A stretch of 64,000 nt of DNA from an uncultured cyanobacterium (GCA_963744145.1 CAVUSO010000001.1:160001-224000), one strand, 5' to 3'. Shown: positions 1-44,093, numbered from the stretch's first letter. Numbers and translations are program-made. Notes: a model not told the origin generated them from the sequence alone.

Positions 1-1372
1 AATTATTTAAGGGGTCTTTAATTCCTAATAAATCCAAAATTTCTGGACGTTTCGTTAATAATCTTTGGTAAATTTCTGGATAAAGCTGCATAATTCGATC
101 GCTTAAAATTTTGGCATTAACTAAATGATTAGCAGCTAACCTCAGTAAAAATTTATCTTCTGAGGATTCAAATCGTTGAATTCTCAAACTAAGTTCTCGA
201 TTTTCTAGCTCGATTTGAGTAATTGTAAATGCTAAAGCTTCCCAATGGGGTAAGGAGGATAAATAAACTTCGATCACCGAACTATTTTCTTGATATTGTT
301 TACCTAACTCTCCTGGTTCAAAATCTCGTCCTACCGGATAGCGATCGACTGGTTTTTTCGTAGTATGATCGAACTGGGTAAATACATATTGGCAATCAAC
401 CTTAGAAAAATTAACCTCTTCAATATGCCAATTATAGATACAGCATCCAGTCATTTGCGCTCCATCTAAATTAGTCCGGATCAGATAACTATCTAATAAG
501 TAAGCATCTCTTAAATCGGCTTCACTTAACATCGCATCACTGAGATAAGCACCACTTAAATCAGCTCGTCGCAAATCAGCTCCGCGTAAATTGCTTTCAC
601 TCAGGTCAGCTAATAATAGATAAACATCTTGTAAATTAGTCCGCAATAAATGGGCTTTTTTAAAACTAGCTTTGAGCAAATAAGCACCAGAAAGATTAGC
701 CCGACTTAAATCAGCACTATTGAGCTTCGCTTCACTTAAGTCTGCTCCGATGAGAATTACTCGGTGCATATCCGCACTGGTTAAATCTGCTCCCCTCATG
801 GACACACCACTGAGATTAGCTTCAATCAAATTAGCGCCAATTAATTTAGCATCACGTAAGTTAGCTTCTTCTAGATGTGCTTCTCGCAGATTAGCATTAC
901 CCAAATCAGCACCAGTCAAATTACTTCGACGCAGATTTGCTTCCATTAATTCTGCTCCGACGAAACGACTACTATTGAGTTTGGCTTTTTCCAAGTTAAC
1001 TTGATCTAGTTTTGCTCCCTGTAAGTCTGCTCCACTTAAATCAGCTTCTAACAGAATTGCCCAATTTAAGTCTGATTCGAGCAGTTTAGCGAATCGTAAG
1101 TCAGCTTTGGTCAAATTTGCCCCGCTTAAAATTGCTTGATTGAGATTAGCACTGGTAAAAGTAGCGTTTCGCAAGTCAGCACGACGTAAACAAGCACCAA
1201 TTAGTTGACTATGGTTAAGAAATGCCCAACTGAGGTTAGCCCCCGTCAGGTTGGCTCCGGTAAGATCGATCTCGCGCAGATTAACACCACTCAGACTAGC
1301 ACCGCTAAGGTCAATGTGGGCAAAATTGCGCTCTCCTTTCTGATAGCGGTCGATAAGCTCCTGGGTTTCCAT
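1..1372 (-). CDS. Pentapeptide repeat protein (3' end runs off the window)
   Basis: Not in the ORF track because its stop codon is outside the window. Manual minus-strand translation from ATG 1372: METQELIDRYQKGERNFAHIDLSGASLSGVNLREIDLTGANLTGANLSWAFL..., followed by many A(D/N)Lxx repeats. Confidence 0.9.
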   Translation of the reverse strand, partial: METQELIDRYQKGERNFAHIDLSGASLSGVNLREIDLTGANLTGANLSWAFLNHSQLIGACLRRADLRNATFTSANLNQAILSGANLTKADLRFAKLLESDLNWAILLEADLSGADLQGAKLDQVNLEKAKLNSSRFVGAELMEANLRRSNLTGADLGNANLREAHLEEANLRDAKLIGANLIEANLSGVSMRGADLTSADMHRVILIGADLSEAKLNSADLSRANLSGAYLLKASFKKAHLLRTNLQDVYLLLADLSESNLRGADLRRADLSGAYLSDAMLSEADLRDAYLLDSYLIRTNLDGAQMTGCCIYNWHIEEVNFSKVDCQYVFTQFDHTTKKPVDRYPVGRDFEPGELGKQYQENSSVIEVYLSSLPHWEALAFTITQIELENRELSLRIQRFESSEDKFLLRLAANHLVNAKILSDRIMQLYPEIYQRLLTKRPEILDLLGIKDPLNN

Positions 1373-2647: not shown

Positions 2648-4186
2648 TCAAGGTAACCACCGAGGATGAAATCCGGATAGTAATAAATCTTCTGGTTGTA
2701 ACTTCGGAGCTGTGTCTGGACTGGTGGTGGTGGAAATAACAGGAAGTAACCACAATCGACTAGTGGCGATCGGTCTACCGTCACTGGTTCTTGGGGTATT
2801 ATCTGGTAACATTCCCTGGGACTGATTAGCTGTACTAATCTGATCAAATAACAAGGCTAATCCATCTGGAGACAAACTCATTTGAATATCTCTTTGATTG
2901 GGTAAAACTAACAACGGTTTTAAATTTCCTGTGGCTAAATCGATCGCGGCTAAAAACGGTTGTTCTTGGTAATCTTTTCCTTTCATTAACTGAGTTAGTA
3001 AGCAATAAAGAGTTTGGTTCATCGGATCGAATTGAGCGCTTAAAATTGAGCCAGTTGTGCGTAACAGTTCTTTTTCTACTCCTTGATTATTCACTAAAAA
3101 TAGTGAGCGAGTATAATCACTATTATATTTTACCATAGCGGCTGAATTATCTTTGCCAAAACTCAACACTCGACCAAATTTCGCTAAAAAATCTAATGGT
3201 TCTGCTTGTGGTTTTAATGGCAAAATGGCAATTCCTTGACCTTGAGCGATCGCGATCGCGCTACTATCAGGAGCAATTAAAAACTCTCCTCCTGGTTGAT
3301 TATGTAACGGTTTTGGCTTTTCTCCATCGGTCAATAACCATAAGCCAAAATCTTCTCCAGGATGAAGACGGTTCGCTCTTTGCACGACAATATTTTGCCC
3401 ATCAGCTGATAAATCAAACTGTAAATTTTGATATTCTTTACTATCTAAAATTTTATTAATTCTTCCCGCTGTTTCCGCTTGTTTAACTGGGGTTTCTGGA
3501 GCTTGAAAATTAGGTGGGGATAGGGGATTAATTCCAGTGGTGACTGTAAATAATTCTTGCTCTAACAAACTTTTATCTTTACCATTGCGATCGGTTGCTG
3601 CAAATAAAATTCTCTCGCCGCGAGGATAAATCTTAAAATCCATTACCATCAAATCTTTGGGAGTGAGAATAACTGGTTTAGGTTTATCTAGGGAGAGATT
3701 GACTAGAATTAATCTACCTTCCTCTTCACCATCAACTCCTATATAAACAAAAGCCCGATCGCGACTGCGAAAATGACCTGTAAAAGGCTCAATTAAATGT
3801 CCATTTTCTCCTGCACCGGTCAAACCATCCCGCGCTCCTTCTAAAGTAACTTTAAATGTGGTGCCATAAGGAGCTGGTTCTACCAAGCGATAAGCCATTT
3901 TTCGCCCTACCCAGCTAAATTTACCAGGTTTTAATGATGGTGTTATTTTTAAATTTTCTTCAACAGTAGCATGAGCCATCGGGCGACTAAAAGTGAGAAT
4001 AAATGAATTATCTTCTGCTCCTACTTGTTTACCTTCCCAACTAAAATCCCGCACCTTTGGTAAAGCGTGATCCCCATTCCATAACAAGAACGCGATCGCT
4101 ACACTCAAAACAGTCATTAATGTTATTGCTGTCCGATCTATGGGCTGGGAAAATATTGGCTTCATGGGGAATGGCACGTTGGTCAT
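2648..4186 (-). CDS. Membrane-anchored Ig-like domain plus TolB-like beta-propeller protein
   Basis: 512-aa ORF; N-terminal TM helix, LTFSRPM Ig-like (Big_5-type) motif, repeated S-P/A-D-G propeller turns; co-oriented with the permease genes. Confidence 0.7.
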   Translation of the reverse strand: MTNVPFPMKPIFSQPIDRTAITLMTVLSVAIAFLLWNGDHALPKVRDFSWEGKQVGAEDNSFILTFSRPMAHATVEENLKITPSLKPGKFSWVGRKMAYRLVEPAPYGTTFKVTLEGARDGLTGAGENGHLIEPFTGHFRSRDRAFVYIGVDGEEEGRLILVNLSLDKPKPVILTPKDLMVMDFKIYPRGERILFAATDRNGKDKSLLEQELFTVTTGINPLSPPNFQAPETPVKQAETAGRINKILDSKEYQNLQFDLSADGQNIVVQRANRLHPGEDFGLWLLTDGEKPKPLHNQPGGEFLIAPDSSAIAIAQGQGIAILPLKPQAEPLDFLAKFGRVLSFGKDNSAAMVKYNSDYTRSLFLVNNQGVEKELLRTTGSILSAQFDPMNQTLYCLLTQLMKGKDYQEQPFLAAIDLATGNLKPLLVLPNQRDIQMSLSPDGLALLFDQISTANQSQGMLPDNTPRTSDGRPIATSRLWLLPVISTTTSPDTAPKLQPEDLLLSGFHPRWLP

Positions 4187-4191
4187 AAATC

Positions 4192-4968
4192 CTAGTAATC
4201 ATAGGGATTTTCTGGTTGTTTAATTGGGGTAACCGATGTTGCTTGAATCACAAGTTGAGATTTATTATCTAACTTTTCGGCAATCATCTGACCGACAATT
4301 TCTAACCAAGTATCTGCTGGAAAATTAGTGCGACTTTGCTGAAGTTTAACTGGTAATCCGACTGGATAAGCATCCGCAGCACAACAGGTAATGACAAAGC
4401 GAGAAATTAATAGATAATTCTCTGGTAGTTGGGGAGGATGAATCACAAATCCTTGGACTTTTACCTTTTGTCCAGCATATTTATCTGGGTCAGGGTAAAC
4501 AGTTAAAGTGCGGACCCACTCCACTAGAGAGCGATCTTCCGGTCGTTTACTCTGCCAAAAAGATTGATTTTGCGATCGCGTCATGGTCACCAGTTCCGTC
4601 ACACCCCGTTGAATTGCTGTTTGACTATTAAAAGCTTGGGGTGAAATAAACATTCCGAGTAGTGCTGTGATCAATAAGAGGATACTACTCCACCCAGGTG
4701 GCAAAAAAGTAAAGTGCTGAACGCTCGGTCTGGCAATTTGCTCAAGGGAGAAACGCATCTGGTTAATTAAAGTCCAGGATTGGCTAATCCCAATTCCTAA
4801 AAATCCGATCCCTGTACCAATTACCAACCATTGATAATCGGGGTGAATCAGTAAATTCAACTTCCCGACCAACCAATATTTTAACAGCAAAATTCCCCAA
4901 GCGACGATCGCTAAAACGTCCAGCCAGGGTAGCCACAAAAAACGACTTGTTCCAGGTTGATTTGACAT
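4192..4968 (-). CDS. TIGR03943/YcgQ-family (DUF1980) putative permease subunit
   Basis: LLIHP motif, 3 TM segments, RFVITCCAADA motif, C-terminal QPENPY. Confidence 0.85.
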   Translation of the reverse strand: MSNQPGTSRFLWLPWLDVLAIVAWGILLLKYWLVGKLNLLIHPDYQWLVIGTGIGFLGIGISQSWTLINQMRFSLEQIARPSVQHFTFLPPGWSSILLLITALLGMFISPQAFNSQTAIQRGVTELVTMTRSQNQSFWQSKRPEDRSLVEWVRTLTVYPDPDKYAGQKVKVQGFVIHPPQLPENYLLISRFVITCCAADAYPVGLPVKLQQSRTNFPADTWLEIVGQMIAEKLDNKSQLVIQATSVTPIKQPENPYDY

Positions 4969-4970
4969 AG

Positions 4971-6020
4971 CTAACTAATATTCAAATTTGTGGCCAGAGT
5001 CAAGAAAAATGTTAACTGGGCAGCTAAAACGAGCATATAAATTATGGGTTTGATCTTGAAGATCGACAATAATAGACCAATGCCTTTAAAGTCAATCATT
5101 GGCCCAAAAACTAGAAATGCTAACAAAGAACCACTGGTGAACATGGAGGCAAAAGATAGGGCAAAAAATGAGTCTACCGTGGAACAAATTGAGACGAGCG
5201 TGGCCAATAACATCATGGCCATAATTGAGGATATGGGTCCGGAACCTAAACTCAAAATGATTTCTCGGGGTACTAAAACTTGAATAGACGCGGCGATCGC
5301 ACTACCAATAATTAATACTCCGCCTAACTCCCGCAATTCTTGCACTGTATTATCCAAAAACAAACGCCATTTAGGGTGGGGAGATTGAGTAGTGAGATGC
5401 GGCTGAACCCCAGAATATTGTCCCAGGAGGACTGGTTCTAACTTAATTGGTCCAGTCCCCTCTCCTAACCAATAAGTGCCTGATTGGAGCAAAATTGTAC
5501 TTGGTTCTTCTAGTACAGATAACTTGGTTGGGACAGCCTGAAATTGGGGGAGAGTTCTGGCCACAACTGGTTGTAACAAAGGTTTAAGATCGACTTGGGT
5601 ACTAAATACCCAGCCTACTGTGGTGGCAATGATCAGGGAAAATCCTACTCGTAACACAACTATTTCCGGCTGGTCGCGAAAGGCAGTCCAAGTAGACCAA
5701 ATTACAATGGGATTAATGGTCGGAGCTGCTAGCAAAAATCCAATTGCGACAGGTGCTGGGACTCCCTGGAGCAACAAACGTCTGGCTACTGGGACATTAC
5801 CACATTCACAGACAGGAAACAAAAAGCCAATTAAACTGCCGGCTAGCGCCCCTAAGATGGGATTACGGGGCATCCGTGACACTAAAGCCCGTTCATCCAC
5901 AAAAAACAGCAAAAAACTTGACAAGATTACCCCTAGGAGTAAAAACGGAAACGCTTCGACTAGCAAACTCAAATACAGAGTAAAGGCATTATTTAATTGA
6001 TTAATTAATGTTAATGGCAT
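4971..6020 (-). CDS. DUF318/YcgR-family permease
   Basis: EAFPFLLLG, FPVCECGNVPV, SICSTVD and FLVFGPMID motifs; multiple TM segments. Confidence 0.85.
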   Translation of the reverse strand: MPLTLINQLNNAFTLYLSLLVEAFPFLLLGVILSSFLLFFVDERALVSRMPRNPILGALAGSLIGFLFPVCECGNVPVARRLLLQGVPAPVAIGFLLAAPTINPIVIWSTWTAFRDQPEIVVLRVGFSLIIATTVGWVFSTQVDLKPLLQPVVARTLPQFQAVPTKLSVLEEPSTILLQSGTYWLGEGTGPIKLEPVLLGQYSGVQPHLTTQSPHPKWRLFLDNTVQELRELGGVLIIGSAIAASIQVLVPREIILSLGSGPISSIMAMMLLATLVSICSTVDSFFALSFASMFTSGSLLAFLVFGPMIDFKGIGLLLSIFKIKPIIYMLVLAAQLTFFLTLATNLNIS

Positions 6021-6279: not shown

Positions 6280-7326
6280 ATGTTAAGTAAGTCCTGGCCG
6301 TCATCATTAGTTCCACATATGACAGAAATGGAACGACAGAAATTCGCTTTCCATTTAGAGTCTACCCTCTTAGAGCTGCGACTTTATCCCTTTGAATTTG
6401 AATCCTATCATCTCACCAAGGAGATTGGTAAGGCTTTTAGTGATAATCCGCTGCTACCTGGGGTCATCTTAACAGAACGAGGTAATTTTTTCGGGATGAT
6501 TTCTCAACGTCGGTTTTTAGAACAAATGAGTCGTCCCTACAGTTTGGATCTGTTTGCTAATCGCCCAATTACTGCTTTGTACCGGGTGGCACAGACAGAA
6601 CTTTTGATTGTCCCTGGTAATACTCCCATTGTGGCAGCAGCATGGCAGTCTTTGCAACGTCCCGTCGAATTACTCTATGAACCACTAGTGGTGCAAATTG
6701 ATGCCAATTCTTATCGACTATTAGATGTACACCAATTATTGGTAGCCAGTGCGATTATTCACGAATTAGCTCGACGCTTGTTGCAGACAGCTAATGATGA
6801 GTTAAACCGATTAGCTACTTTAGATAGTCTAACTCAGGTAGCCAATCGTCGTCGATTTGATGAGTATTTGGAACAAGAATGGCGACGTTTAGCTCGAGAA
6901 AAAGCATACCTATCTTTAATTTTGTGTGATATAGATTATTTTAAAGCCTATAACGATACCTATGGTCATCAAGCCGGTGATCATTGTTTGCGGGAAGTTG
7001 CTGGGGCAATCCGCGTTAGTCTCAAACGTCCAGCTGATTTGGTCGCTCGGTATGGTGGTGAAGAATTTGCTGTGGTTTTACCCAATACGGATACTACAGG
7101 AGCGCTGCATATTGCCGAAGAAATTCGAGCTAGACTAAAAGAATTGCAAATTTTGCATCCCCATTCAACGGTGAGTAACTATGTCACCCTGAGTTTAGGA
7201 GCAGCTAGTCTGATCCCTAACCACCAATTTTGTTCAGCAGAGTTAATTAAAGCTGCTGATGATGCTCTTTATCAAGCTAAGTCTGAGGGACGCGATCGCT
7301 GTAATTTAAACTCCCACTTTTCCTGA
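6280..7326 (+). CDS. Diguanylate cyclase with CBS-like N-terminal domain
   Basis: DSLTQVANRRRF, CDIDYFK and RPADLVARYGGEEF (RxxD I-site plus GGEEF); N-terminal LESTL..LPGVIL..GMISQRRFLE domain. Confidence 0.9.
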   Translation: MLSKSWPSSLVPHMTEMERQKFAFHLESTLLELRLYPFEFESYHLTKEIGKAFSDNPLLPGVILTERGNFFGMISQRRFLEQMSRPYSLDLFANRPITALYRVAQTELLIVPGNTPIVAAAWQSLQRPVELLYEPLVVQIDANSYRLLDVHQLLVASAIIHELARRLLQTANDELNRLATLDSLTQVANRRRFDEYLEQEWRRLAREKAYLSLILCDIDYFKAYNDTYGHQAGDHCLREVAGAIRVSLKRPADLVARYGGEEFAVVLPNTDTTGALHIAEEIRARLKELQILHPHSTVSNYVTLSLGAASLIPNHQFCSAELIKAADDALYQAKSEGRDRCNLNSHFS

Positions 7327-7832
7327 CCAATCTTGACCCAATTAAATCACAGCTCTATGAGCTTTCGTACTTGGAGTTCTCGTTTGATTTGTGGGCAGCT
7401 AATGCCCAAAGGTGATATATATCAATCTATAGCACTATTGTCAATCCGTAAATACACTGTTGTGATCCAACTTAACTTTATGATAGATTATCTGTTGAAC
7501 AGAGATTAATAATAATTACTAAATTATCCAAATCAGGGCATAAAATGTTATTATAGGGGTAATGTGTGGCAAATGAAAGCTTTTTTTCTAAGTAGCACAG
7601 GTATAGATTAAAACTGGCATTGATGGGAATCTACTCAAAGAGATTTGATCGACGAATAACTAGAATGTTAATTCTCAATTAAAATCTTGATAAATTTTGA
7701 TTAACCAAGTTGGCTGATCTAAAAAGTGAGGTTAGAGTGGCAACTTTCATCAATTAGACTGATTTGATCAACCATATTTTTTATTAAGCAATAATAAAAA
7801 ATATAAATTTATGATTGAGGGTTTATCTTTTT

Positions 7833-8945
7833 ATGTTTGCCAGGGAATTACTCTATCCCAACCAGTCAGTTTCAACCCTAGCTCCTAGTTCTGAAGAAGA
7901 TTTGGGTTTAGATTCAACCTTACAAGAGCTGTCTTTGTATGATTTTCAAATCGAGTCCTATCGTCCGGGACGGGAAATCGCGTTAGCTTTTAAAGCTAAT
8001 CCCCTCCTTCCTGGGGTAATTTTGGTAGAAGAGGGAAAATTTGTCGGGATGATTTCCCGACAACGTTTTTGGGAACATCTCAGTCGTCCTTATGGACTAG
8101 AGTTATTTTTAAAACGACCAATCAAAACTTTATATAAATTTGTCCGTTCCGAAAGCTTAATTTTTCCTAGTGCCACTTTAATTGTCATGGCAGCACAACG
8201 AGTAGTTACTCGTCCACAGGAGTTGCTGAATGAACCGATAGTCGTACAGGTAGATCCGAATTGTCACAAAGTTTTAGATATTCATCAATTGTTATTTGCC
8301 CAGTCACAAATTCACCAATTAGCGACGATTTTATTAAGCAAATTGTATTATCAGTTGGAAGTAGCTAATCAAGAATTAGCCCAAGCTAATCAGGATTTAG
8401 AATTAGCTAATCGCGAATTGCAGAGTTTAGCAATTATCGATGATTTAACTCAACTAGCGAATCAACGTCGATTAGATGAATGTCTCAATCAAGAGTGGAT
8501 GCGTTTAGCACGGGAAAAAGCACCACTATCGATTATTATGTGTGATATTGATTATTTTAAAAAATATAACGATACTTATGGCCATCCAGCGGGCGATCGC
8601 TGTTTACGACAGGTCGCAGATGCACTCCGTCAATCAACCAGACGACCAGCTGATTTAGTAGCTCGATATGGAGGTGAAGAATTCGTGGTTATTTTACCTA
8701 ATACCACCACTGAGGGGGCAATGTACATCGCCGAAACAATTTGTACTCGAGTCAAAGATTTAAAAATTCCCCATGAAAATTCACCTATTTATCAGCAAGT
8801 AACGATTAGTTTAGGTATTGCTACCACTATTCCCAGCCATGATATTTTACCTAATAGTCTCATTGCTCAGGCGGATTTGGCCCTTTATCAAGCCAAAGCA
8901 TCGGGACGTAATTGCGTAACTGTACATCCTATCTCCCAACTATAG
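7833..8945 (+). CDS. Diguanylate cyclase with CBS-like N-terminal domain
   Basis: GGEEF motif with RPAD I-site; same N-terminal domain as 6280; ATG 7833 (MFA...) preferred by analogy with the paralogue starts at 13340 and 14463. Confidence 0.9.
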   Translation: MFARELLYPNQSVSTLAPSSEEDLGLDSTLQELSLYDFQIESYRPGREIALAFKANPLLPGVILVEEGKFVGMISRQRFWEHLSRPYGLELFLKRPIKTLYKFVRSESLIFPSATLIVMAAQRVVTRPQELLNEPIVVQVDPNCHKVLDIHQLLFAQSQIHQLATILLSKLYYQLEVANQELAQANQDLELANRELQSLAIIDDLTQLANQRRLDECLNQEWMRLAREKAPLSIIMCDIDYFKKYNDTYGHPAGDRCLRQVADALRQSTRRPADLVARYGGEEFVVILPNTTTEGAMYIAETICTRVKDLKIPHENSPIYQQVTISLGIATTIPSHDILPNSLIAQADLALYQAKASGRNCVTVHPISQL

Positions 8946-9225
8946 CACTAATTTGTCTTGCCAATACTATTGATATATTGCTAGACATGAGAAATGCCAA
9001 TATAAAGAAAATCTAAAATTAATTATCCCCGTTCATCATCGCCGAATACATTATTATTGCCATCTGGGGTAATTTCCTAGGTAATCCGATCACAATCAGA
9101 TTTACCACGGATTTAAAATAGTGGACAATCTAATTTATGAGCATTACAATTGGTAATATCCGACCATTGATTATATAAATGAGTTATTGAGAATACCAAT
9201 TTCCGATGAAATGGGACTTAAAACT

Positions 9226-9324
9226 CAATCCGGTTCAGTTAAATAAAATAGATTTTTAGGCTCGCAGGAAGCGCTTTAGCGCACTAAAGCGCTTCCTACG
9301 AACCAGCTAATCTGAATCGTATTG
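9226..9324. mobile_element. MITE-like element carrying a REP-like hairpin
   Basis: Imperfect ends CAATCCGGTTCAGTTA / TAATCTGAATCGTATTG enclose the palindrome CGCAGGAAGCGCTTTAG-CGCA-CTAAAGCGCTTCCTACG; the same ends occur at 20054, 22136 and 22621. Confidence 0.6.
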
Positions 9325-9423
9325 GATCATAAATTGTTAGGAGTTGGAGAATTTGAGTAAAAATACTTAAATATTTTTCCACCATAATCAAGAAATAACT
9401 AAGCCAAAATCAGAGAGGAGAAA

Positions 9424-12400
9424 ATGGGTCTTGACGTTCCTTTAGCAATAGGTTCCTCACCAATGTTTTCTGAGAAAAACAGCGATTTGGATCAACATCA
9501 GTTACAAGAAATATTAATCGCAACCCAAATAGAATTAGAGCGATATTTACTTTTATATAACAACCATCCATCTATCTATTTTACCCTGGATATTTCCGGG
9601 TTAATTCTCTCAATTAATCAATTTGGCGCTAACAGTCTTTTGTACTCCCCATCAGAATTGATTGGTCAGTCAATTTTCAGTTTAGTTTATCCAGAAGACA
9701 CAGATAGACTACTAGCAGAATATCGGTTATTTTTGCAAGAGTCAACCACAGCGATAAATTGGGAATTTAGGCTAGTTTGTAAAGATGGTTATGTCCTATC
9801 AGTCCGGGCAAATTTACATTTAACCAAATTCCTGTCATCCAGATCGAAGTGTGAAAAAACGTTTATTGCTCAACCAGAAAACAGTTATAACTTAGAGCAA
9901 AAATCCCAACTATTCTCTGATAATTTATCTTCCTATACTATCCATAATAGTCTTTTAGCTAGTACCGAATTAGTGGTTCTAGTGGTTTGCGAAGATATCA
10001 CTGATTTCAAAATCGTCGGTGCTGCTTTACAAGAAAATGCCCAAAGATTTCGCGTTACTTTTGAACAAGCAGGAGTAGGGATTGCTCATGTAGCTTTAGA
10101 TGGAAAATGGTTACGAGTCAATCAAAAATTGTGCGAAATATTAGGATATACTCGTCGGGAAATATTGCAACTAGATTTTCAAAACATTATCTATCCAGAA
10201 GAGCGCGAGCTTGAACTAAAATTTTTAGCCCCGATCATTACTGGTAAGCTCCAAACATTTTCATGTCAGAAACAGTATATCCGTCAAAGTGGTGACCAAG
10301 TATGGATTAATATTACCATCTCCCTAGTCCGGGATTTACAAGGAATCCCCCAGTATTTTATTAGTGTAATTGAAGACATTACTGATCCTAAGAAAATCGA
10401 AGCAGAATTACAAGAAAATGTCAAAGCATGGCAAACTTTTCTAGAAACTGTAGGAGAAGGAGTTACCCTTAGTAATTCCGTCGGACAATTTGAAGTTTTT
10501 AACTCAAAAATGGAAGAAATTACTGGTTATTCTAAAGAAGAAGCCAATAGTTCTAGGGATTTTTTATCACTTTTATATCCCCATCCTGAAGCACATCAAA
10601 AAGCACTAGCGGGTGTTCAAGAAATTAGTCAAACAGGAGGAGTTCGCGATGTGGAAACTACGATTCGGGCTAAAGATGGTACTAAAAAAACCTTGTTAGT
10701 GTCTACATCAATTGTCTCTTATAAAAATCGCAATTTATTTTTAAGTGCTTATCGAGATATTACTGAACGTAAGCAAGCAGAACAAGCACTTTATCTGGCT
10801 GAAGCTAAATATCGTAGTATTTTTGAAAATGCGATCGAAGGAATTTTTCAGACAACTATAGATGGATGCTATCTCAGTGCTAATCCTGCATTAGCCAGAA
10901 TATATGGTTATAGTTCTCCAGCAGAATTGCTGGTAGAAATTAAAGACATTGGGCAGCAAATATATGTGATACCTGAACGCAGAAAAGAATTAATTAGATT
11001 ACTAGAAAAAGAGCATAAAATTGCCGAATTTGAGTTTCAAGCTTATCGAAAAGATCGCCGAATAATTTGGATTTCTAAAAATGCTCGGGCTATCCGTAAT
11101 AGTAGGGGTGATCTGATCTATTATGAAGGCACAGTTGAGGATATTACCCACCGTAAACAAGCACAGGAAGCCTTTCGACAGCAAGCGGAACGAGAACGTT
11201 TAATTAGCATGATTCAAGTGCGAATTCGTCAATCTCTTAACCTCCAGGAAATTATTAGTATTACGGTCAAAGAAGTTCGGCAATTTCTGCAAACAGATCG
11301 GGTGTTAATTTATGGCTTTCAAGTCGATGGTAAGGGTAGTGTAATTGTTGAGTCTCGTCAAAATAATTGTCCAGAAATTCAGGGAACACTGATTTATGAT
11401 CCTTGTTTTTCAGAAAAATATACCACGCTGTATCAAGAAGGAAGAGTTTTTGCAACTGAAGATATTCATAATTCTGGCTTAAATCCCTGTCATATTGAGT
11501 TACTGTCTCAGTTTCAGGTAAAAGCAAGTTTAGTAGTACCAATTTTGACTAATAAGACTGAGGAAAAAAACTGGTGGAGCGATAAAAGAAAAAAAATTGA
11601 TGCTCCCAACTACTCAGAAATACTTGCTCCCCGTTTGTGGGGATTATTGATTGCTCATCACTGTGTCAGTACACGTTACTGGCAACCCTATGAAATTGAT
11701 TTGCTGAAGCAATTAGCTACTCAGGTTGGTGTGGCTATTTACCAATCAGAACTTTATGACAAATTGCACAGTGCTAATGCGGCTTTAGATCGACAAGTGC
11801 AAGAACGCACGATGCAATTGCAACAGGCTCTTGATTTTGAAGCAATGTTGAAACGGATTACAGATAAAGTCCGTGATAGTTTAGATGAAAGCCAAATTTT
11901 ACAAACAGCCGTGAAAGAATTGGCTTGTGTGTTAGGAGTTAATTGTTGCGATACGGCTTTATATAATGCAGATCAAACTACTGCAACTATTTCTTATGAA
12001 TGTACAACTGGTAAGCCTAGGTTTAAGGGAAAAGTAGTCCAAATGACAGATTTCTATCAAGTTTATGAGCAGTTGCGACAAGGATGGTATTTCCAATTCT
12101 GTGAAATTAGTGGTAGAATCGCTCAGGGAACGATTTTGGCTTGTCCGATTTTAGATAATCAAGGTGTATTGGGAGATTTGTGGTTGTTCAGTCATCCTGA
12201 TTATACTTTTAAGGAACTAGAAATTCGGTTAGTCCAGCAGGTAGCTAATCAGTGCGCGATCGCGATTCGTCAAGCTTGGTTATTTCAAGCTGCTCAAACT
12301 CAAGTTCAGGAATTAGAAAAAATTAACCGACTCAAAGATGAATTTCTCAGCACGGTCTCCCATGAATTGCGGACACCTTTATCGAATATGAGAATGGCTA

Positions 12401-13074
12401 TTCAAATGCTAGCGATCGCTCTCAATCAACAGCAGGAATTTTTTGGAGAATTAGCGAAACCAAAACTAGAACGGAGTAAGGTCGCTCTTTATTTTCAGAT
12501 TTTACAAGAAGAATGTGAACGAGAAATTAGCTTGATTGGGGATTTACTAGATTTACAAAAACTTGATGCTACGGCTGAACCTTTGAGTTTGGAAACTATA
12601 TCTTTACCAGAATTTCTCTCGAAAATTGTGGCAGCTTTTCAAGACCGAGCTAGTCAACACAAACAACTTTTGACTATGGACATTAGTGAGGATCTACCAC
12701 CTTTATTGTCTAATTCCTCTAGTTTGGGAAGAATTGTAAGTGAGTTGCTGAATAATGCTTGTAAGTATACTCCCGCTCGGGAAAAAATTACTCTTAGCGT
12801 TAATTATCAAGCCGCAGAGATAATTTTAACTGTCACTAATTCAGGAGTGGAGATTCCCCCTGACCAGATCCCCCGGATCTTTGATAAGTTTTATCGGATT
12901 CCCCGTACTGACCCCTGGGAACAAGGAGGAACGGGACTAGGATTAACTTTGGTGCAGAAATTGGTTACTTATCTAGGGGGTGCGATCGCTGTTTCTAGTT
13001 CTCAAGGGATCACCTCTTTTCAAGTTACTTTACCTTTAACTATCGCTAGTCCCACTTTTAAGCTGGGTGATTAA
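9424..13074 (+). CDS. Multi-PAS, cyanobacteriochrome GAF, GAF histidine kinase
   Basis: About 4 PAS/PAC repeats (EDIT..K), GAF with DPCF and CH motifs, second [12 protein letters not shown]-box, ELLNNACKY N-box, GGTGLGL G2 box. Confidence 0.9.
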   Translation: MGLDVPLAIGSSPMFSEKNSDLDQHQLQEILIATQIELERYLLLYNNHPSIYFTLDISGLILSINQFGANSLLYSPSELIGQSIFSLVYPEDTDRLLAEYRLFLQESTTAINWEFRLVCKDGYVLSVRANLHLTKFLSSRSKCEKTFIAQPENSYNLEQKSQLFSDNLSSYTIHNSLLASTELVVLVVCEDITDFKIVGAALQENAQRFRVTFEQAGVGIAHVALDGKWLRVNQKLCEILGYTRREILQLDFQNIIYPEERELELKFLAPIITGKLQTFSCQKQYIRQSGDQVWINITISLVRDLQGIPQYFISVIEDITDPKKIEAELQENVKAWQTFLETVGEGVTLSNSVGQFEVFNSKMEEITGYSKEEANSSRDFLSLLYPHPEAHQKALAGVQEISQTGGVRDVETTIRAKDGTKKTLLVSTSIVSYKNRNLFLSAYRDITERKQAEQALYLAEAKYRSIFENAIEGIFQTTIDGCYLSANPALARIYGYSSPAELLVEIKDIGQQIYVIPERRKELIRLLEKEHKIAEFEFQAYRKDRRIIWISKNARAIRNSRGDLIYYEGTVEDITHRKQAQEAFRQQAERERLISMIQVRIRQSLNLQEIISITVKEVRQFLQTDRVLIYGFQVDGKGSVIVESRQNNCPEIQGTLIYDPCFSEKYTTLYQEGRVFATEDIHNSGLNPCHIELLSQFQVKASLVVPILTNKTEEKNWWSDKRKKIDAPNYSEILAPRLWGLLIAHHCVSTRYWQPYEIDLLKQLATQVGVAIYQSELYDKLHSANAALDRQVQERTMQLQQALDFEAMLKRITDKVRDSLDESQILQTAVKELACVLGVNCCDTALYNADQTTATISYECTTGKPRFKGKVVQMTDFYQVYEQLRQGWYFQFCEISGRIAQGTILACPILDNQGVLGDLWLFSHPDYTFKELEIRLVQQVANQCAIAIRQAWLFQAAQTQVQELEKINRLKDEFLSTVSHELRTPLSNMRMAIQMLAIALNQQQEFFGELAKPKLERSKVALYFQILQEECEREISLIGDLLDLQKLDATAEPLSLETISLPEFLSKIVAAFQDRASQHKQLLTMDISEDLPPLLSNSSSLGRIVSELLNNACKYTPAREKITLSVNYQAAEIILTVTNSGVEIPPDQIPRIFDKFYRIPRTDPWEQGGTGLGLTLVQKLVTYLGGAIAVSSSQGITSFQVTLPLTIASPTFKLGD

Positions 13075-13339
13075 AATATTTTGGGTTCCTCAGTCCACAA
13101 ATTTTAATTTTTTGGTGGCGATCGCGAAAAAATTGTATTAATAAAAACAAAATTTCCTCAGCTATTAACCATCATCTGTACGACATGGTTAATTTTAATT
13201 TTTATTTAACAAAGTTTTTTGGTAATAAAAGGAATTAAATCGATATGATTTAAGCAAATCAACCAAAAATTTTCTGAGTTAATCAGGAGAAAATTTTGTT
13301 GGATACCTGAGATCACCATATTACCTGAGGATTGCTCTT

Positions 13340-14056
13340 ATGTTTGCTTTAAATCAATCCTACTTTGACTTATCGATTTTACCATCATCGAGGAGTGCAA
13401 ATACTGAGAGCCTTTGTTTAGAATCAACTTTAGCAGCACTTAAATTATATGATTTTCAGATTGAATCATCTGAACTAGGGATAGAAGTAGCGAAAGCTTT
13501 TGAAAGAGATGCTCTCCTCCCAGGGGTAATTTTAACCAAAAATAGTCAATTTATTGGGATGATTTCCCGACGCAGGTTTTTAGAATATTTGCTACGTCCC
13601 TACGGAATGGAATTATTCTTAAAGCGACCGATTAAAACTTTACATCGTCTAGCTCAGATCGAAAATTTAATTTTACCCGTCCATACTTTAATTGTTTTAG
13701 CTGCTAAACAATCTTTGCTGAGACAACCAGCTTTAAGTGATGAACCACTTGTCATAGAAATCGAGCCATCCGTATATAGATTATTAGATGCACATCAATT
13801 ATTAGTAGCTAGCACCCAAATTCACCATTTGACCAGACAGCTCTTGGATGAGTTAGAAAAGTTAAATCGTCTGAAAGATGACTTTCTCAGTGCTGTATCT
13901 CACGAATTGCGGACACCTTTGGGACAACAAGAAGGAACGGGATTAGGATTAACACTGGTCCAGCAATTGGTAACTGATTTAGGAGCTGTCATCACTGTTC
14001 AAAGTAGTGATAACCAAACCTGCTTTACGCTCACATTTCCTTTAACCAGTAACTAA
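13340..14056 (+). CDS. CBS-like domain protein with internally deleted histidine-kinase tail (possible pseudogene)
   Basis: Shared N-terminal domain, then SHELRTPL joined directly to GQQEGTGLGL; N and G1 boxes missing. Confidence 0.75.
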   Translation: MFALNQSYFDLSILPSSRSANTESLCLESTLAALKLYDFQIESSELGIEVAKAFERDALLPGVILTKNSQFIGMISRRRFLEYLLRPYGMELFLKRPIKTLHRLAQIENLILPVHTLIVLAAKQSLLRQPALSDEPLVIEIEPSVYRLLDAHQLLVASTQIHHLTRQLLDELEKLNRLKDDFLSAVSHELRTPLGQQEGTGLGLTLVQQLVTDLGAVITVQSSDNQTCFTLTFPLTSN

Positions 14057-14462
14057 AGTTTCCTGATTCTCTTTTAAACGAGAAACTGACGATTGCCAAA
14101 CTTGCTGCTGGTCGGTTGCTTTTCTGACAACTGACCACAGGGTGGTGATTACACTCAATGATTTTTAGCTACTTTTGAGTGCTATTGCTAGCTGATGAAA
14201 TTAATAGGATTTCTGGATAATATATTAGTTGAGATATTACTTTTCTAAACTTAATAAAAAAAAACAGTATTGATAGTATTAGCTAAAGACTATCAATTAA
14301 TTAATCATAGGTTAATCCTTAGTTAATAAAAAATTAATCAAAGGTAAAATGCGAATAGATATCATGATCTATGCCTTTGGTTTGTTTGGATGTATAATAG
14401 GTGGATAGATATGATGATTATTTCCCTATTGTGCTTTACCAAAATAACCTGGGGTTCTGTTT

Positions 14463-15836
14463 ATGTTTGCTTTATGTGAAAATTATGCGGATTTATCAAT
14501 TATACCAGTTCGGGAGGATCATGTGCAAAACCTCTGTTTAGAATCAACATTAATCGAATTGACTCTTTATGAATTCCAACTTGAATCCTCTGTTTTAGCG
14601 GTAGAAGCAGCAAAAGCTTTTGAAGTCAATCCGATGTTACCAGGAGTTATTCTCACAGAGCAAGAGGAGTTTCTTGGGGCAATTTCACGGCGCAGATTTT
14701 TGGAATATTTAAGCCGTCCATACGGATTAGAATTATTTTTAAAGCGCCCGATTAGTTCTTTATATCGCTTTGCTCGAAGAGAAACTTTAATTTTACCAGC
14801 TCATACTTTGATTGTTTTAGCAGCTCGTCAATCTTTAAATCGAGAGCCAGCTTTGCTCAATGAACCAGTAATTGTCGAAGTGGAAGAAAAAATATACAAA
14901 TTATTAGATGTACATCAACTCTTAGTTGCAGGTGCTCAAATTCAACACTTAACATCACAGTTACTCAAGAAACAAACTCAAGCTCAAATGATGCAAACGG
15001 AAAAGATGGCTAGTTTGGGAAAAATGGTAGCTGGAGTCGCTCACGAAATTAGAAATCCAGTCAATAGTCTGGGGGGAAATATCGGATTTTTATCTAATTA
15101 TTTTGAAGATATTATGCAGTTATTATCTGTTTATGAAACAGAATCTGTAGAGAATTCACCCCGGATTGTTGAGGTGAAAGAGGAAATTGAATTTGATTTT
15201 TTAAAGCGAGATTTAAAACAAGTTATTCAGACGATGCGGATTGCTGCTGATCGTTTGATTAAAATTGTGGCTGGGTTACGAAATTTTTCCCACATGGATG
15301 AGACTAATCGACGACCAGCAGATATTCACGAATGTATTGACAGCACGTTATTAATTTTACATAATTCTCTGAAAGATAAAATAGAAGTAATTAAAGACTA
15401 TACTGAGTTACCGCCAGTGAGTTGTTATTCTGGACAGTTAAGTCAAGTATTTATGAATTTAATTAGTAATTCTATTGATGCTCTCATGGATGCGATCGAA
15501 GCCCAGAAAAATACTACCACAGGGAAAAATTGGCAAGCAAAAATCGAAATTACCACCAAAGTGATCGAAAGCGAAGAGCAGAAATGGGCATCGATTAAAA
15601 TTGCTGATAATGGTCCAGGAATTCCCTCCGAAATTCAAGGAAAAATTTTTGAAATGTTCTTTACTACTAAAGGAGTGGGCAAAGGAACTGGGATCGGATT
15701 GGCCATTAGTTATCAAATTATCACTGAAAAGCATGGTGGAAAGCTAAATTTGCGATCGCCCTGTGTAGATTCAACCTCTACCGATCTAGACAAAGGCACC
15801 GAATTTGAAATACTCTTACCATTAGATCCTGGTTAA
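14463..15836 (+). CDS. NtrB-type histidine kinase with CBS-like N-terminal domain
   Basis: EKMASLG..AHEIRNP, QVFMNLISNSIDA, DNGPG and FFTTKGVGKGTGIGL motifs. Confidence 0.9.
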   Translation: MFALCENYADLSIIPVREDHVQNLCLESTLIELTLYEFQLESSVLAVEAAKAFEVNPMLPGVILTEQEEFLGAISRRRFLEYLSRPYGLELFLKRPISSLYRFARRETLILPAHTLIVLAARQSLNREPALLNEPVIVEVEEKIYKLLDVHQLLVAGAQIQHLTSQLLKKQTQAQMMQTEKMASLGKMVAGVAHEIRNPVNSLGGNIGFLSNYFEDIMQLLSVYETESVENSPRIVEVKEEIEFDFLKRDLKQVIQTMRIAADRLIKIVAGLRNFSHMDETNRRPADIHECIDSTLLILHNSLKDKIEVIKDYTELPPVSCYSGQLSQVFMNLISNSIDALMDAIEAQKNTTTGKNWQAKIEITTKVIESEEQKWASIKIADNGPGIPSEIQGKIFEMFFTTKGVGKGTGIGLAISYQIITEKHGGKLNLRSPCVDSTSTDLDKGTEFEILLPLDPG

Positions 15837-15838
15837 GT

Positions 15839-17245
15839 ATGTATTTGAGGTATTCTGTGCTACAAAACAGATTTATTTCTGAATTACCTCCCCCATCTCT
15901 GTCTCAATCCACCAATGGTGATATTTGTCTCGAGTCAACCTTACAAGAGTTACCTCTATACGATTTTGCGGTTGAACCTAGTGTAATTGGTCTGAATATT
16001 GCCCAAATATTTGAAAAATATCCTCTGGTTCCAGGTGTAATTATCATCGAAACGGGAAAATTTATTGGTGTAATTTCCCGACGCAGTTTATTAGAATACT
16101 TGATTCGTCCCCATGGATTAGAAATATTTTTAAATGAACCAATCTCGGTACTCTATAGTTATGCTCGGACGGAAATGCTGGTACTTCCAGCAACTACCTT
16201 AATTACTACAGCCGCACAGCAAGCACTGAGACGATCACCGGAACTGTTAGGAGAACCAATTGTAGTACAACTAGAAGGACAGATCTATCGATTGCTCGAT
16301 ATGCACCAATTAAATATTGCCTATTGGCAAATTCGCGGGATTGAAACTCAAGTTCGTTATGAACGGACTCAAGCTCAAATGATTCAAAGTGAGAAAATGG
16401 CTAGTTTGGGTCGTTTAGTTGATGGAGTCGCTCACGAAATTCTCGATCCAGTCGGATTTATTTGGGGAAATTTAATTTATGTAGAAAATTATAGCCATGA
16501 ATTAACTCAGCTCCTCAGTGTTTATCAACAATATTTACCTCAACCTCCCAGAGAAATTGCCCAAATTATGGAGGAAATAGAGTTAGATTTTGTTCAGCAA
16601 GATTTACCAAGAGCGATCGCGAGTATTCGAGCGGGAGCTGACCGATTAAAAAAGTTAGTTACTAGTCTCCAAAATTTCTGCCATATTGATGCAGTTTACC
16701 CCAAACCAGCCGATTTACACGCCTTAATTGATAGTATTTTATTACTACTGAAAAGTCGGATCTCTGGGGAAATAGAAATTATTAAAAATTATGGCAATTT
16801 ACCACCTGTACCCTGCTATGCAGGTCAGCTTAACCAAGTTTTTATGAATATTATTACTAATGCGGTTGATGCTTTAATTAATGAAGCGGTAACGCAAGAA
16901 TTTAGAAAAGAATTTAGCCGGAATGAGAATAGAGAAAGCGATCGTTCACAGTCTCGCAAATTACAAATAGAAATTACCACCCAAGTTTTGCCTCAAGAAG
17001 CTGCTAATTTAGGTCTAGGTAACTCCCGTTGGGTTTCCATTCAGATTGCTGATAATGGTCCGGGAATGTCAGAAGCTAAACAACAGCAACTTTCAGAAGC
17101 TTTTTCCATTGAAAAACGTGCTTTTAAAGAAACCAGTTTAGGAGTTAGTTATTGGATTGTCACAGCTCGACATGAAGGAAGTTTTAAATGGCGATCGCAA
17201 CCAGGAGTGGGAACACAATTTGAAATTTTACTACCTTTAGTTTAG
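15839..17245 (+). CDS. Atypical histidine kinase with CBS-like N-terminal domain
   Basis: AHEILDPV H-box, N box and DNGPG present; F/G2 box replaced by FSIEKRAFKETSLGVS. Confidence 0.85.
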   Translation: MYLRYSVLQNRFISELPPPSLSQSTNGDICLESTLQELPLYDFAVEPSVIGLNIAQIFEKYPLVPGVIIIETGKFIGVISRRSLLEYLIRPHGLEIFLNEPISVLYSYARTEMLVLPATTLITTAAQQALRRSPELLGEPIVVQLEGQIYRLLDMHQLNIAYWQIRGIETQVRYERTQAQMIQSEKMASLGRLVDGVAHEILDPVGFIWGNLIYVENYSHELTQLLSVYQQYLPQPPREIAQIMEEIELDFVQQDLPRAIASIRAGADRLKKLVTSLQNFCHIDAVYPKPADLHALIDSILLLLKSRISGEIEIIKNYGNLPPVPCYAGQLNQVFMNIITNAVDALINEAVTQEFRKEFSRNENRESDRSQSRKLQIEITTQVLPQEAANLGLGNSRWVSIQIADNGPGMSEAKQQQLSEAFSIEKRAFKETSLGVSYWIVTARHEGSFKWRSQPGVGTQFEILLPLV

Positions 17246-21007: not shown

Positions 21008-21385
21008 ATGTCTCCACAACATCCATTAAACAAGCCCAATTGGACTGATGAAGATATTTATGAAGAAATTAGCAATATTGTCGGTAAATTTACTAATTTA
21101 CAATGCGATAAATGCGCTAAAGCAATGGTAAAATGGTTAAAACAAAATGGCATTAGCTGGAAAATTCTCAAATTAACAACAGCGAATCCTAAAGAACGCT
21201 ATATTCTTAGCGATCGCCAGGGAGGGAATGAATCAATTACAGAAAATGGTAAGCATTATGGAGTGGAAGTTAGAGGTAGAGTATTTGACAATCTTTCGTC
21301 ATCAGGACTGACTAGAGAAGATTGGATTAAAGATTTTCACTGCCCTTCTCAAAAATTTCATATTACTGAATTAGAAGATTTCTAA
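21008..21385 (+). CDS. Stand-alone papain-fold toxin domain protein (Tox-PL-2-like)
   Basis: QCDKCA ... ITENGKHYGVEVRGRVFDN gives a Cys-His-Asp papain-fold pattern; AGGAGG upstream. Confidence 0.7.
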   Translation: MSPQHPLNKPNWTDEDIYEEISNIVGKFTNLQCDKCAKAMVKWLKQNGISWKILKLTTANPKERYILSDRQGGNESITENGKHYGVEVRGRVFDNLSSSGLTREDWIKDFHCPSQKFHITELEDF

Positions 21386-21413: not shown

Positions 21414-21776
21414 ATGGCTGGACTCTACGAAACCCTAGCAAAAATTAAAGATAAACCAGGGATGTATTTGGGACATCCTTCGATAACTGCACTCCAGTTT
21501 TTTATCGAAGGTTACGAATTTGCTCGGAGCGAGTTAGGAATTGAATCAACAGACACCGAACTAGAATTTCACCGCAACTTTCAAGAATGGATACAGGAAA
21601 AACTGGAAGTGCAGACAGTTAGCTCTTGGGCAAAAATTATCCAGCTATACTGTACTGACGAAAAAGAAGCTTTTTTCTACTTTTTTAGGTTGCTGGATGA
21701 GTTTTTAGCCCAGAAAAACCAGTCGTTAGTAAATAGTAGTTCTCAATCAGAATTATTGCAAACAGCTAACTGCTAA
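21414..21776 (+). CDS. Hypothetical protein, putative immunity partner
   Basis: IKDKPGMYLG..SITAL..FIEGY...FQEWI...SWAKII...AFFYFFRLLDEF; lies 28 bp after the toxin ORF with a GGGAG RBS. Confidence 0.65.
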   Translation: MAGLYETLAKIKDKPGMYLGHPSITALQFFIEGYEFARSELGIESTDTELEFHRNFQEWIQEKLEVQTVSSWAKIIQLYCTDEKEAFFYFFRLLDEFLAQKNQSLVNSSSQSELLQTANC

Positions 21777-35916: not shown

Positions 35917-36118
35917 GGCGAAACTAACCAGAGCAAAATTAGTATCAATTCTCACATTTTTGATCAGAAAAGCTAGCTAGCAGAGAAACAAGAACAATTT
36001 TTAGCTATAGCTGTTCTACTGATCATTTACATTGTCTAAAATTATGATAAAATGAAATGTCTCCTTGAACAGAAGCTATTTCATTGGGTCGGTGTCTATG
36101 TTAGATATGGTCGAGTGT

Positions 36119-40272: not shown

Positions 40273-40291
40273 TAACCACAAGGAGTTAGTG

Positions 40292-44031: not shown

Positions 44032-44053
44032 GGGTTAGATTTAGGCGAAAGTA

Positions 44054-44062
44054 TGGTATAAT
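44054..44062 (+). promoter_or_regulatory. Extended -10 promoter for the ATPase operon
   Basis: TGGTATAAT about 30 bp upstream of ATG 44094. Confidence 0.5.
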
Positions 44063-44093
44063 TGCACATATATCTATATTACTAAATTTTTCC

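Follow-up and report, generated by a model that had tools for sequence, protein, structure and literature searches.

A predicted divergent CBS-pair sensor heads the cyclases and kinases of a cyanobacterial signalling cluster

Introduction

Why would a cyanobacterium line up five signalling genes that all begin with the same domain, and what might that domain sense? The question is raised by a 64,000-nucleotide (nt) stretch of an uncultured, filamentous cyanobacterium (GCA_963744145.1 CAVUSO010000001.1:160001-224000; the whole stretch analysed is hereafter the window), in which the open reading frame (ORF) listing gives six co-oriented ORFs on the plus strand between positions 6280 and 17245, five of them starting with a common N-terminal domain. 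An earlier interpretation of the bare nucleotide string (the sequence-only reading) had taken this domain for a CBS-like sensor and had described its outputs as two diguanylate cyclases, an intact kinase, a degenerate kinase and a deleted one. The outputs are as claimed: two GGDEF proteins (DGC1 and DGC2), an intact kinase (HKa), a kinase with degenerate F and G2 boxes (HKb) and a kinase in which the H-box is run into the end of the G2 box (the truncated protein). Our answer, to which we give a probability of roughly 0.6, is that the cluster represents a signalling module, conserved in cyanobacteria, that was expanded in this lineage and in which soluble CBS-pair sensors are wired by a helix to their outputs.

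A sensor family with its own signature

Over 151 residues, the sensor regions are 52-65% identical to the copy carried by HKa (the gene starting at 14463), with 43 of the 151 columns invariant and a mean column identity of 71%. Chance similarity is excluded, because a profile built from the five copies and run against the 7.70-Mb genome recovered precisely these five places, with expectation values (E) from 2e-75 to 5e-78. The consensus string drawn up earlier corresponds to the invariant columns, except that the HKb copy (gene start 15839) has Leu for Phe after ISR; likewise, the start proposed for the second cyclase (7833) lies in the right frame of an ORF that extends further, to a TTG at 7815. 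In comparisons among the five sensors, synonymous sites approach saturation (proportion of synonymous differences, pS, 0.61-0.79) and the nonsynonymous distance (dN) ranges from 0.28 to 0.53; judged by these comparisons, the five copies are old and under purifying selection. In the sensor tree, the HKb sensors form one clade (Shimodaira-Hasegawa-like approximate likelihood-ratio test, SH-aLRT, 100) and the sensor of the truncated gene is sister to that of HKa (SH-aLRT 96).

The search for relatives returned 684 proteins and 1028 representative clusters (both at E <= 1e-3), and the alignment from which conservation was scored (A3) holds 84 rows, the window's five included. At least 90% conserved over these rows are L14, P41, G42, G53, S56, F60, I98, A101, R108, E115, P116, L134 and A137, followed by R76 (89%), R57 (86%) and D130 (82%). 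The subfamily can be told by a signature of its own (LPGVI, GMISRR, SRPYGLELF, EP-VV and LLD-HQLL), and no NCBIfam model covers it. Within a phylum-wide cyanobacterial sample the domain was found in 83 of 301 genomes and 53 of 132 genera (E <= 1e-5). The outputs that follow it in 108 representative relatives comprise kinases, hybrid kinases, GGDEF and GGDEF-EAL proteins, SpoIIE phosphatases, MCP, HAMP, PAS and GAF domains, as well as one GGDEF-HD-GYP protein.

Two further, distant copies exist elsewhere in the genome (E 1.5e-36 and 1.7e-34 with the five-copy profile). Both sit outside the window (L007, 2321-6002; L008, 1899-4730), each as part of a hybrid kinase with a link to a class III nucleotide cyclase: one is a sensor-HisKA-HATPase-receiver-receiver protein that adjoins a receiver-cyclase gene and a single receiver, the other a sensor-kinase-receiver-cyclase fusion. 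The sensor family therefore appears to feed cAMP/cGMP-type signalling there as well.

The predicted fold is a CBS pair

The AlphaFold2 model of the isolated domain (predicted local distance difference test, pLDDT, 96.1; predicted template-modelling score, pTM, 0.87) runs twice through a beta-alpha-beta-beta-alpha order and ends in a 20-residue C-terminal helix. The DSSP elements (E, strand; H, helix) are E20-22, H27-36, E42-47, E50-56 and H57-64 in the first repeat, and H78-85, E91-93, H98-106, E117-122, E125-129 and H131-150 in the second; the same CBS-pair elements were seen in the full-length model of DGC1. Foldseek gave at least 100 matches in the PDB at E <= 1e-3 (best E 2.6e-5, template-modelling scores 0.51-0.68), and among the matches listed all are CBS pairs. 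Alignment to solved CBS pairs with VIA-align reached Z 12.4 at a root-mean-square deviation (rmsd) of 2.8 A over 123 residues (399 of 901 chains at Z >= 8), and a language-model look-up of the sensor placed 26 of 30 matches in the CBS set.

Aligned by hhalign with seven canonical CBS pairs of the same genome, the family scored E 5.6e-5 over 37 columns (probability 66%), and a second alignment, in register, scored E 5.2e-5 over 83 columns (probability 67%). A profile search of the PDB returned nothing significant, its best match being a CBS protein at E 0.063, and a six-frame scan of the genome with Pfam PF00571 (CBS) gave 32 matches, none of them inside the cluster. Considering the modelled fold, we take the shared domain to be a CBS pair (Bateman module) of a divergent subfamily, as the sequence-only reading had proposed in calling it CBS-like, with full-pair support from AlphaFold2 and Foldseek and modest support from profile-profile comparison. 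It is filed here as a divergent member of the CBS fold, outside PF00571 as that family is modelled.

What the pair may bind

CBS domains that bind adenosine ligands carry the signature G-h-h-[ST]-x-x-[DN] at beta3/alpha2, the Asp of which contacts the ribose. In the hhalign alignment, GAISRRRF of the sensor falls on GVISETDL and GIITRGDI of the canonical pairs. Ser56 thereby occupies the Ser/Thr position of the first motif (kept in 80 of the 84 rows) and Gly53 is kept too; at the canonical Asp position the HKa copy has Arg59, and the 84 rows have Arg (35), Lys (12) or Gln (11). All seven canonical pairs have the aligned Asp in their second motif. The second sensor motif, LLD-x-HQ-LL, has Asp130 at the Ser/Thr position and Gln133 at that of the Asp (Gln in 31, His in 11 and Glu in 8 of the 84 rows), both placed by our reading of the internal repeat.

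Adenine nucleotides are not favoured as the ligand, because the canonical Asp position is mostly Arg, Lys or Gln, and the adenine-nucleotide sensing that had been proposed for the domain is not supported by its sequence. The near-invariant Ser56-Arg57, Arg76 and Arg108 suggest instead an anionic ligand or a network of salt bridges.

An energy-charge sensor, whose binding of adenine nucleotides (AMP, ADP or ATP, or alternatively S-adenosylmethionine, SAM, or c-di-AMP) would jointly set cyclic di-GMP (c-di-GMP) synthesis and kinase activity, thus seems to us unlikely. It would suit the CBS-pair fold, among whose structural neighbours are AcuB with AMP/ADP/ATP, AMPK gamma, MgtE with ATP and a CBS protein with SAM, and it would suit the retained Ser of the first motif; it would also agree with the 2022 census of c-di-GMP enzymes, in which, as there described, their CBS domains are presumed AMP/ATP/SAM sensors with no experimentally validated role (PMC8846402). 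It sits poorly, however, with the Arg, Lys and Gln residues at the canonical Asp position, with a second motif that (on the same reading of the repeat) has Asp for Ser/Thr and Gln, His or Glu for Asp, and with the failure of the canonical CBS hidden Markov model to recognise the domain.

Cyclases and the linking helix

The GGDEF domain is recognised in DGC1 and DGC2 at E 1.4e-54 and 8.4e-56, respectively (PF00990). Both read RPAD...GGEEF, with the RxxD inhibitory site five residues upstream of GGEEF; all 36 cyclase orthologues have GGEEF, and 31 of the 36 have RxxD. Both are, with their catalytic motifs intact, predicted diguanylate cyclases.

In the full-length model of DGC1 (pLDDT 93.1) one unbroken helix (residues 150-180) joins the CBS pair to the GGDEF domain. 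The linker of DGC2 is 22 residues longer, and a tandem repeat (period 21, 3.0 copies, score 61) falls inside the insertion. The distance between the HQL motif and the phospho-acceptor His is 42 residues in HKa, 42 in HKb and 35 in the truncated protein. Signalling helices (S-helices) between sensor and output are described as about 40 residues long, with an ERT signature in the central heptad (PMC1592074); the linker of HKb holds ERT, that of HKa KQT and that of DGC1 neither.

A competent kinase and its altered paralogue

HKa matches HisKA (E 9e-9) and HATPase_c (E 7.2e-22), and in 30 orthologues H194, E195, N198 (the His+4 position), the F-box FF-TTK and the G2 glycines G406, G408, G410 and G412 are invariant; its motifs being intact, it is classed as a HisKA-type sensor histidine kinase.

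HKb matches HATPase_c (E 3.6e-12) and has no HisKA match at E <= 0.1. His199, Glu200, the N box and DNGPG are retained throughout its 18 orthologues, all of which carry FS where HKa has its F box, KETSL where HKa has its G2 box (alignment with HKa opens a two-residue gap there) and Asp at His+4. Altogether 21 positions are fixed differently in HKa and HKb, the change from Asn to Asp at His+4 and two of the G2 glycines included, and mean column identity is higher among the 18 HKb orthologues (67%) than among the 30 of HKa (53%). Gly-to-Ala changes in the G2 box of GacS are described to abolish ATP binding (PMC8498467), and in HisKA kinases, by the account in PMC3510030, Thr or Asn at His+4 is required for phosphatase activity and an acidic His+1 residue for kinase activity.

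HKb seems neither an autonomous kinase nor a canonical phosphatase, because its F and G2 boxes are replaced and Asp stands at His+4. It is not decaying: every one of the 18 orthologues has the same substituted boxes, a constancy that speaks for a specialised role. On its motifs, it should be filed as a kinase relative and not as an autonomous kinase. A part as dedicated phosphatase was considered and rejected, given Asp (not Thr or Asn) at His+4 throughout the 18 orthologues and the requirement as described in PMC3510030.

The truncated protein and the probable photoreceptor kinase

In the truncated gene the H-box is joined directly to the end of the G2 box, with about 540 nt missing, in frame, relative to the kinase core of the type encoded by the big kinase gene that starts at 9424. 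Its C-terminal remnants share 80-81% nucleotide identity with the H-box and G2 regions of that gene (12310-12380 and 12920-12993), and its sensor is 65% identical to that of HKa in amino acids and 71% in nucleotides. The H-box stub shows few nonsynonymous differences (pN 0.065 vs pS 0.685). Two readings were rejected: that the gene was copied recently from the big kinase next to it, as nucleotide identity is just 80-81%, and that it encodes a conserved small protein, as none of 24 other matches to its C-terminal part has the deletion. The product may act as a modulator that is sensor only, or the gene may be a remnant in slow decay.

These features bear on a reading in which the shared domain binds no ligand and serves for dimerisation and partner selection, the paralogues forming mixed dimers whose output is set by relative expression. 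Conserved Arg57, Arg76, Arg108, Glu115 and Asp130 could then form salt bridges instead of lining a pocket; the truncated gene, which keeps all 43 invariant columns and a constrained stub, would fit a sensor-only competitor; HKa and HKb lie 2 nt apart; and the RetS-GacS pair, as described in PMC8498467, provides a precedent for heteromeric control of a kinase. Yet most genomes hold just one to three sensor copies, a mixed cyclase-kinase dimer would leave each output without its own partner domain, and partner selection as a general role is impossible, given that many family members are single sensors on other outputs. We therefore regard it as very improbable.

The big kinase itself, bracketed by the sensor genes, lacks the shared domain. 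Its first GAF domain (residues 595-780) matches 71 PDB sequences at E <= 1e-3, TePixJ-type entries among them, the best being 6oap (7e-42), 8k9o (2.5e-34) and RcaE 7ckv (5.7e-31). A conserved Cys-His is aligned in the 6oap match (8k9o has Cys-Leu there), and a DPCF motif lies upstream. The product is thus very probably a photoreceptor with a predicted bilin-type GAF, akin to cyanobacteriochrome/phytochrome-type GAF structures, which upholds the light-sensing assignment made earlier. Orthologues occupy the same position in three other loci (L001, L013 and L021).

A neighbourhood kept across genera

Among 31 related genomes (G000 itself included), 23 contain the domain, and several families show adjacent copies (G004, G005, G006, G013 and G019). 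Regions of six related genomes show cyclase-HKa-HKb runs, in one of which an orthologue of the big kinase stands between the cyclase and HKa. A scan of one genome per species yielded 75 loci, nearly all from filamentous cyanobacteria; 74 of them were labelled against the window's proteins and 50 have an HKa orthologue. Where the flank was long enough to judge, the cyclase is present in 34 of 47 HKa loci (>= 1500 nt upstream; the big kinase intervening in two), the divergently oriented ArsP_1 permease in 35 of 42 (>= 3500 nt upstream) and HKb in 15 of 44 (>= 1700 nt downstream). The TIGR03943/DUF1980 protein usually, and a 512-amino-acid (aa) protein often, accompanies the permease; RimM and an aminotransferase frequently lie downstream, as they do in the window. 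In the other 24 labelled loci we found the permease pair alone (two), the cyclase alone (two) or a distant, lone sensor-kinase paralogue (20, mostly Microcoleus). The linkage that had been supposed for the paralogues thus extends, for cyclase, HKa and HKb, to synteny across many genera. No syntenic counterpart of DGC2 or of the truncated gene occurs at the other loci. HKb starts 2 nt past the HKa stop in the window and 29-534 nt past it in relatives.

Given such a pattern, we consider it quite unlikely that the cluster has no collective function at all and reflects tandem duplication and domain shuffling, with proteins that act alone, a dead truncated gene and an unusual but working ATP site in HKb. 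Gaps of several hundred nt between most genes, the missing counterparts of the second cyclase and of the truncated gene, the frequent absence of HKb and the many other kinases nearby in a signalling-rich genome would all be expected under such a history. Against it stand the order cyclase-HKa-HKb, which many genera from several families preserve next to the same permease pair, the replaced boxes of HKb, unchanged in every orthologue, and the purifying selection on all sensor copies.

The permease genes of the window (2648-6020, minus strand) form an apparent operon of the ArsP_1 permease, the TIGR03943/DUF1980 subunit and the 512-aa Big_5/PD40-like protein. The permease resembles the SO_0444 Cu/Zn efflux family weakly (62 bits vs a cut-off of 300 bits), and our literature search returned nothing on the substrate of the DUF1980/TIGR03943 permease pair. 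The 512-aa protein matches no Pfam or NCBIfam family; its language-model look-alikes are Big_5/PD40 clusters (0.95-0.99), and it has orthologues in many loci.

In six loci (L009, L010, L012, L016, L027 and L077) HKb is followed by a GGDEF protein of 964-1423 aa that has no shared sensor. Its GGDEF part is about 62% identical to DGC1 in five of them, and in L027 the best match is the big PAS/GAF kinase.

Layout of the cluster

The features of the cluster and of its conserved neighbours are collected in Table 1. No 19-residue segment encoded in the cluster exceeds a Kyte-Doolittle hydropathy of 1.63, a maximum that falls in a stretch that includes charged residues; as had been said of them, the proteins show no apparent transmembrane segments, and they are soluble. 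Neither promoter-like sites (29 vs 36.8 in shuffled sequences) nor terminator-like ones (10 vs 7.4) were found in excess above the shuffles, and an Rfam scan of positions 1-24000 returned no family at gathering score. Receiver domains were sought in the cluster and in ORFs out to 31 kb and none was found, as the sequence-only reading had it for the cluster; the sole receiver domain of the window is part of a hybrid kinase at 36065-37828.

Table 1. Genes and elements of the sensor cluster and of the adjoining permease operon (positions in the window).
Feature	Position	Strand	Size or profile match	Architecture and remarks
DGC1	6280..7326	+	348 aa	divergent CBS-pair sensor (~6337-6789), 31-residue helix, GGDEF
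DGC2	7815..8945	+	376 aa from TTG; in-frame alternative ATG at 7833	sensor (~7890-8342), longer linker, GGDEF
Tandem repeat	8358..8419	+	21 nt x 3	one heptad per unit, inside the DGC2 linker helix
Big kinase without shared sensor	9424..13074	+	1216 aa	PAS x4 - cyanobacteriochrome-type GAF - GAF - HisKA - HATPase_c
Truncated sensor protein	13340..14056	+	238 aa	CBS pair, H-box helix and G2-box end of a kinase core
HKa	14463..15836	+	457 aa	sensor (~14520-14972), 42-residue helical linker, HisKA (HEIRNP), HATPase_c with N/G1/F/G2 boxes
HKb	15839..17245	+	468 aa	sensor (~15911-16363), 42-residue linker with ERT, H-box HEILDP, HATPase_c with N/G1 boxes kept and F/G2 altered
ArsP_1-family permease	4971..6020	-	PF03773 1.1e-80	divergent from the sensor genes; conserved neighbour
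TIGR03943/DUF1980 putative permease subunit	4192..4968	-	TIGR03943 2.8e-69	conserved neighbour
Membrane-anchored protein	2648..4186	-	512 aa	probably Ig-like (Big_5) and PD40-type propeller; frequent third gene of the permease operon

How the module may work

We reason that the last helix of the CBS pair would run on, unbroken, as a coiled-coil signalling helix into the GGDEF domain or into the DHp helix of the kinase, and that the CBS pairs would lie within the parallel dimers needed by kinases and GGDEF cyclases. A small molecule or ion of the cytoplasm, probably other than the canonical adenosine ligand and possibly anionic, would settle in the cleft and alter the packing of the two sensors, a change that the helix would transmit. 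Hence, c-di-GMP synthesis and the autophosphorylation of HKa might respond in parallel to one cue. HKb, which probably lacks normal ATP binding and canonical HisKA phosphatase action, keeps its His and would most likely partner HKa, either as an acceptor phosphorylated in trans or as a modulator through DHp-DHp contact (by analogy with RetS-GacS). In this genome the module would have been extended by a further cyclase whose linker is longer, by a photoreceptor kinase that three relatives also have, and by a truncated, sensor-only derivative that is unique.

Several observations weigh against so collective an account. On the side of the domain, the probability of its profile-profile match to canonical CBS pairs is a modest 66-67%, and PF00571 (curated cut-off 24 bits) stays below cut-off on all five copies (18.8 bits, E 0.0021, on one, 13.9 bits on another, and three with no match); in the 108 relatives it is sub-threshold in 7 and reaches the cut-off in none. 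Departure from the adenosine signature does not exclude nucleotides, since CBS sites vary, and we infer ligand binding, dimers and heteromers throughout the scheme. On the side of the genes, gaps of 265-488 nt separate most of them, which makes any co-regulation of them conjectural; no cognate response regulator was identified; the sensors of cyclases and of HKa are not split into clades in the tree, a mixing that may reflect weak signal and not shared function; the permease genes may adjoin the module through ancestral gene order, with no functional link; and HKb is missing from 29 of the 44 HKa loci with enough downstream sequence, so that the module must work without it in many lineages.

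A bolder and rather improbable version would make HKa and HKb an obligate two-gene kinase. HKa, alone of the two in having a working ATP site, would phosphorylate HKb in trans on its invariant His, the two being joined in a mixed DHp bundle, and HKb, having neither ATP lid nor phosphatase Asn, would pass the phosphoryl group to a different regulator. The cyclase, HKa and HKb would all read, via their CBS pairs, a single cue that is not a nucleotide and is linked to what the adjacent ArsP/TIGR03943 permease transports (e.g., a metal or an oxyanion). If true, such an arrangement would let filamentous cyanobacteria connect the state of transport with c-di-GMP and phosphorelay.

Among the presumed sensors of c-di-GMP enzymes, CBS domains are one of the most frequent kinds. 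Standard domain models miss the large sensor family described here, and the proteins therefore look sensor-less (the source names that we saw mention no sensor); once defined, the domain offers a way in to the signals perceived by soluble cyclases and kinases of cyanobacteria. A competent kinase next to a strongly conserved kinase without an ATP lid lends itself, as a small natural set-up, to the study of heteromeric or split histidine-kinase signalling, and the recurrent permease neighbour is a testable lead to the signal.

Other features of the window

Pfam Tox-PL-2 (papain-fold toxin 2; E 5e-30) is recognised in a 125-aa ORF at 21008-21385 (plus strand), which is followed, 28 nt on, by a 120-aa ORF without family (21414-21776, plus strand); the two look like a small toxin/immunity pair of the polymorphic-toxin type.

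An AAA_15/AAA_21 ATPase (44025-45152, plus strand) overlaps by 4 nt a DUF4435 protein (45149-45781, plus strand), a pair that we take to resemble the two-gene PARIS anti-phage system. Nearby are a fragment of an MmeI-type methyltransferase (43055-43699), a C-terminal fragment of a helicase (48024-49247) and a Uma2 endonuclease (49859-50434). An IS200/IS605 element lies within this putative defence region, its IS200-like Y1 transposase (45853-46287, minus strand) back to back with an OrfB_IS605 (TnpB-type) gene (46339-47775, plus strand).

A Ser/Thr protein kinase ORF (50683-54828, minus strand) ends with positions 1-89 of the AAA_16 profile, and the ORF at 54872-56092 (minus strand) begins with positions 104-167 of the same profile, followed by GAF and HATPase_c. 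Together the two ORFs look like a single large kinase-STAND-GAF-histidine-kinase gene that a stop or frameshift near 54830-54870 has split.

A pair of DUF2330 paralogues in tandem, with a slight overlap (38962-40272 and 40226-41608, both on the plus strand), follows an NQR2/RnfD-like membrane protein, and a pentapeptide-repeat protein of at least 457 aa (2-1372, minus strand) runs off the start of the window.

Comparison with known systems

The sequence-only reading had seen in the cluster a candidate for an undescribed system, which was overstated as regards the architecture: that of CBS sensor, signalling helix and kinase, cyclase or phosphatase was described in 2006 by Anantharaman, Balaji and Aravind (PMC1592074, as its account gives it). 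Fold, helix wiring and outputs are of known kinds. What does seem undescribed is the divergent subfamily together with the three-gene module: a literature search, which was not exhaustive, returned no description of such a CBS-pair subfamily, of the permease / cyclase-HKa-HKb neighbourhood or of a conserved kinase paralogue that has no ATP lid and has Asp at His+4.

Stand-alone and enzyme-linked CBS pairs solved with ligands, such as those of AcuB, AMPK gamma, MgtE, CNNM, DarB and CBS-CP12, share the fold with the window's domain (Z 11-12.4, rmsd 2.7-3.7 A over 119-133 residues). They differ from it in sequence, identity being 7-16%, and in the ligand-contacting signature, which the window's domain has not kept; its function cannot be transferred from the CBS fold alone.

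Like the S-helix proteins as described in PMC1592074, those of the window have an N-terminal CBS-type sensor and a long helix, followed by a kinase or a diguanylate cyclase (in relatives by PP2C, MCP or HD-GYP), and HKb bears the ERT signature named there. Unlike them, as far as that description goes, the window's domain is too divergent for PF00571, has a signature of its own and lacks an Asp at the canonical Asp position; moreover, HKa has KQT in place of ERT and DGC1 has no such motif.

A further likeness is to SesA of Thermosynechococcus (CBS x4 - PAS - cyanobacteriochrome GAF - GGDEF; PMC10124867), a cyanobacterial diguanylate cyclase with N-terminal CBS domains. In its host, c-di-GMP is described to govern light-dependent behaviour, and the window's cluster contains a predicted cyanobacteriochrome kinase. 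SesA has, by that description, recognisable CBS domains and the light sensor in one protein, whereas the window has a single divergent pair on the output and a separate photoreceptor gene.

RetS and GacS of Pseudomonas aeruginosa differ, as described in PMC8498467, from HKa and HKb (adjacent, soluble paralogues with the same type of sensor) in that they are membrane hybrid kinases with different sensors, encoded apart. What would liken the two pairs is a kinase-like protein acting on a kinase through a heterodimeric DHp-DHp interface, and in this respect RetS-GacS (PMC8498467) may serve as the model for the possible action of HKb on HKa.

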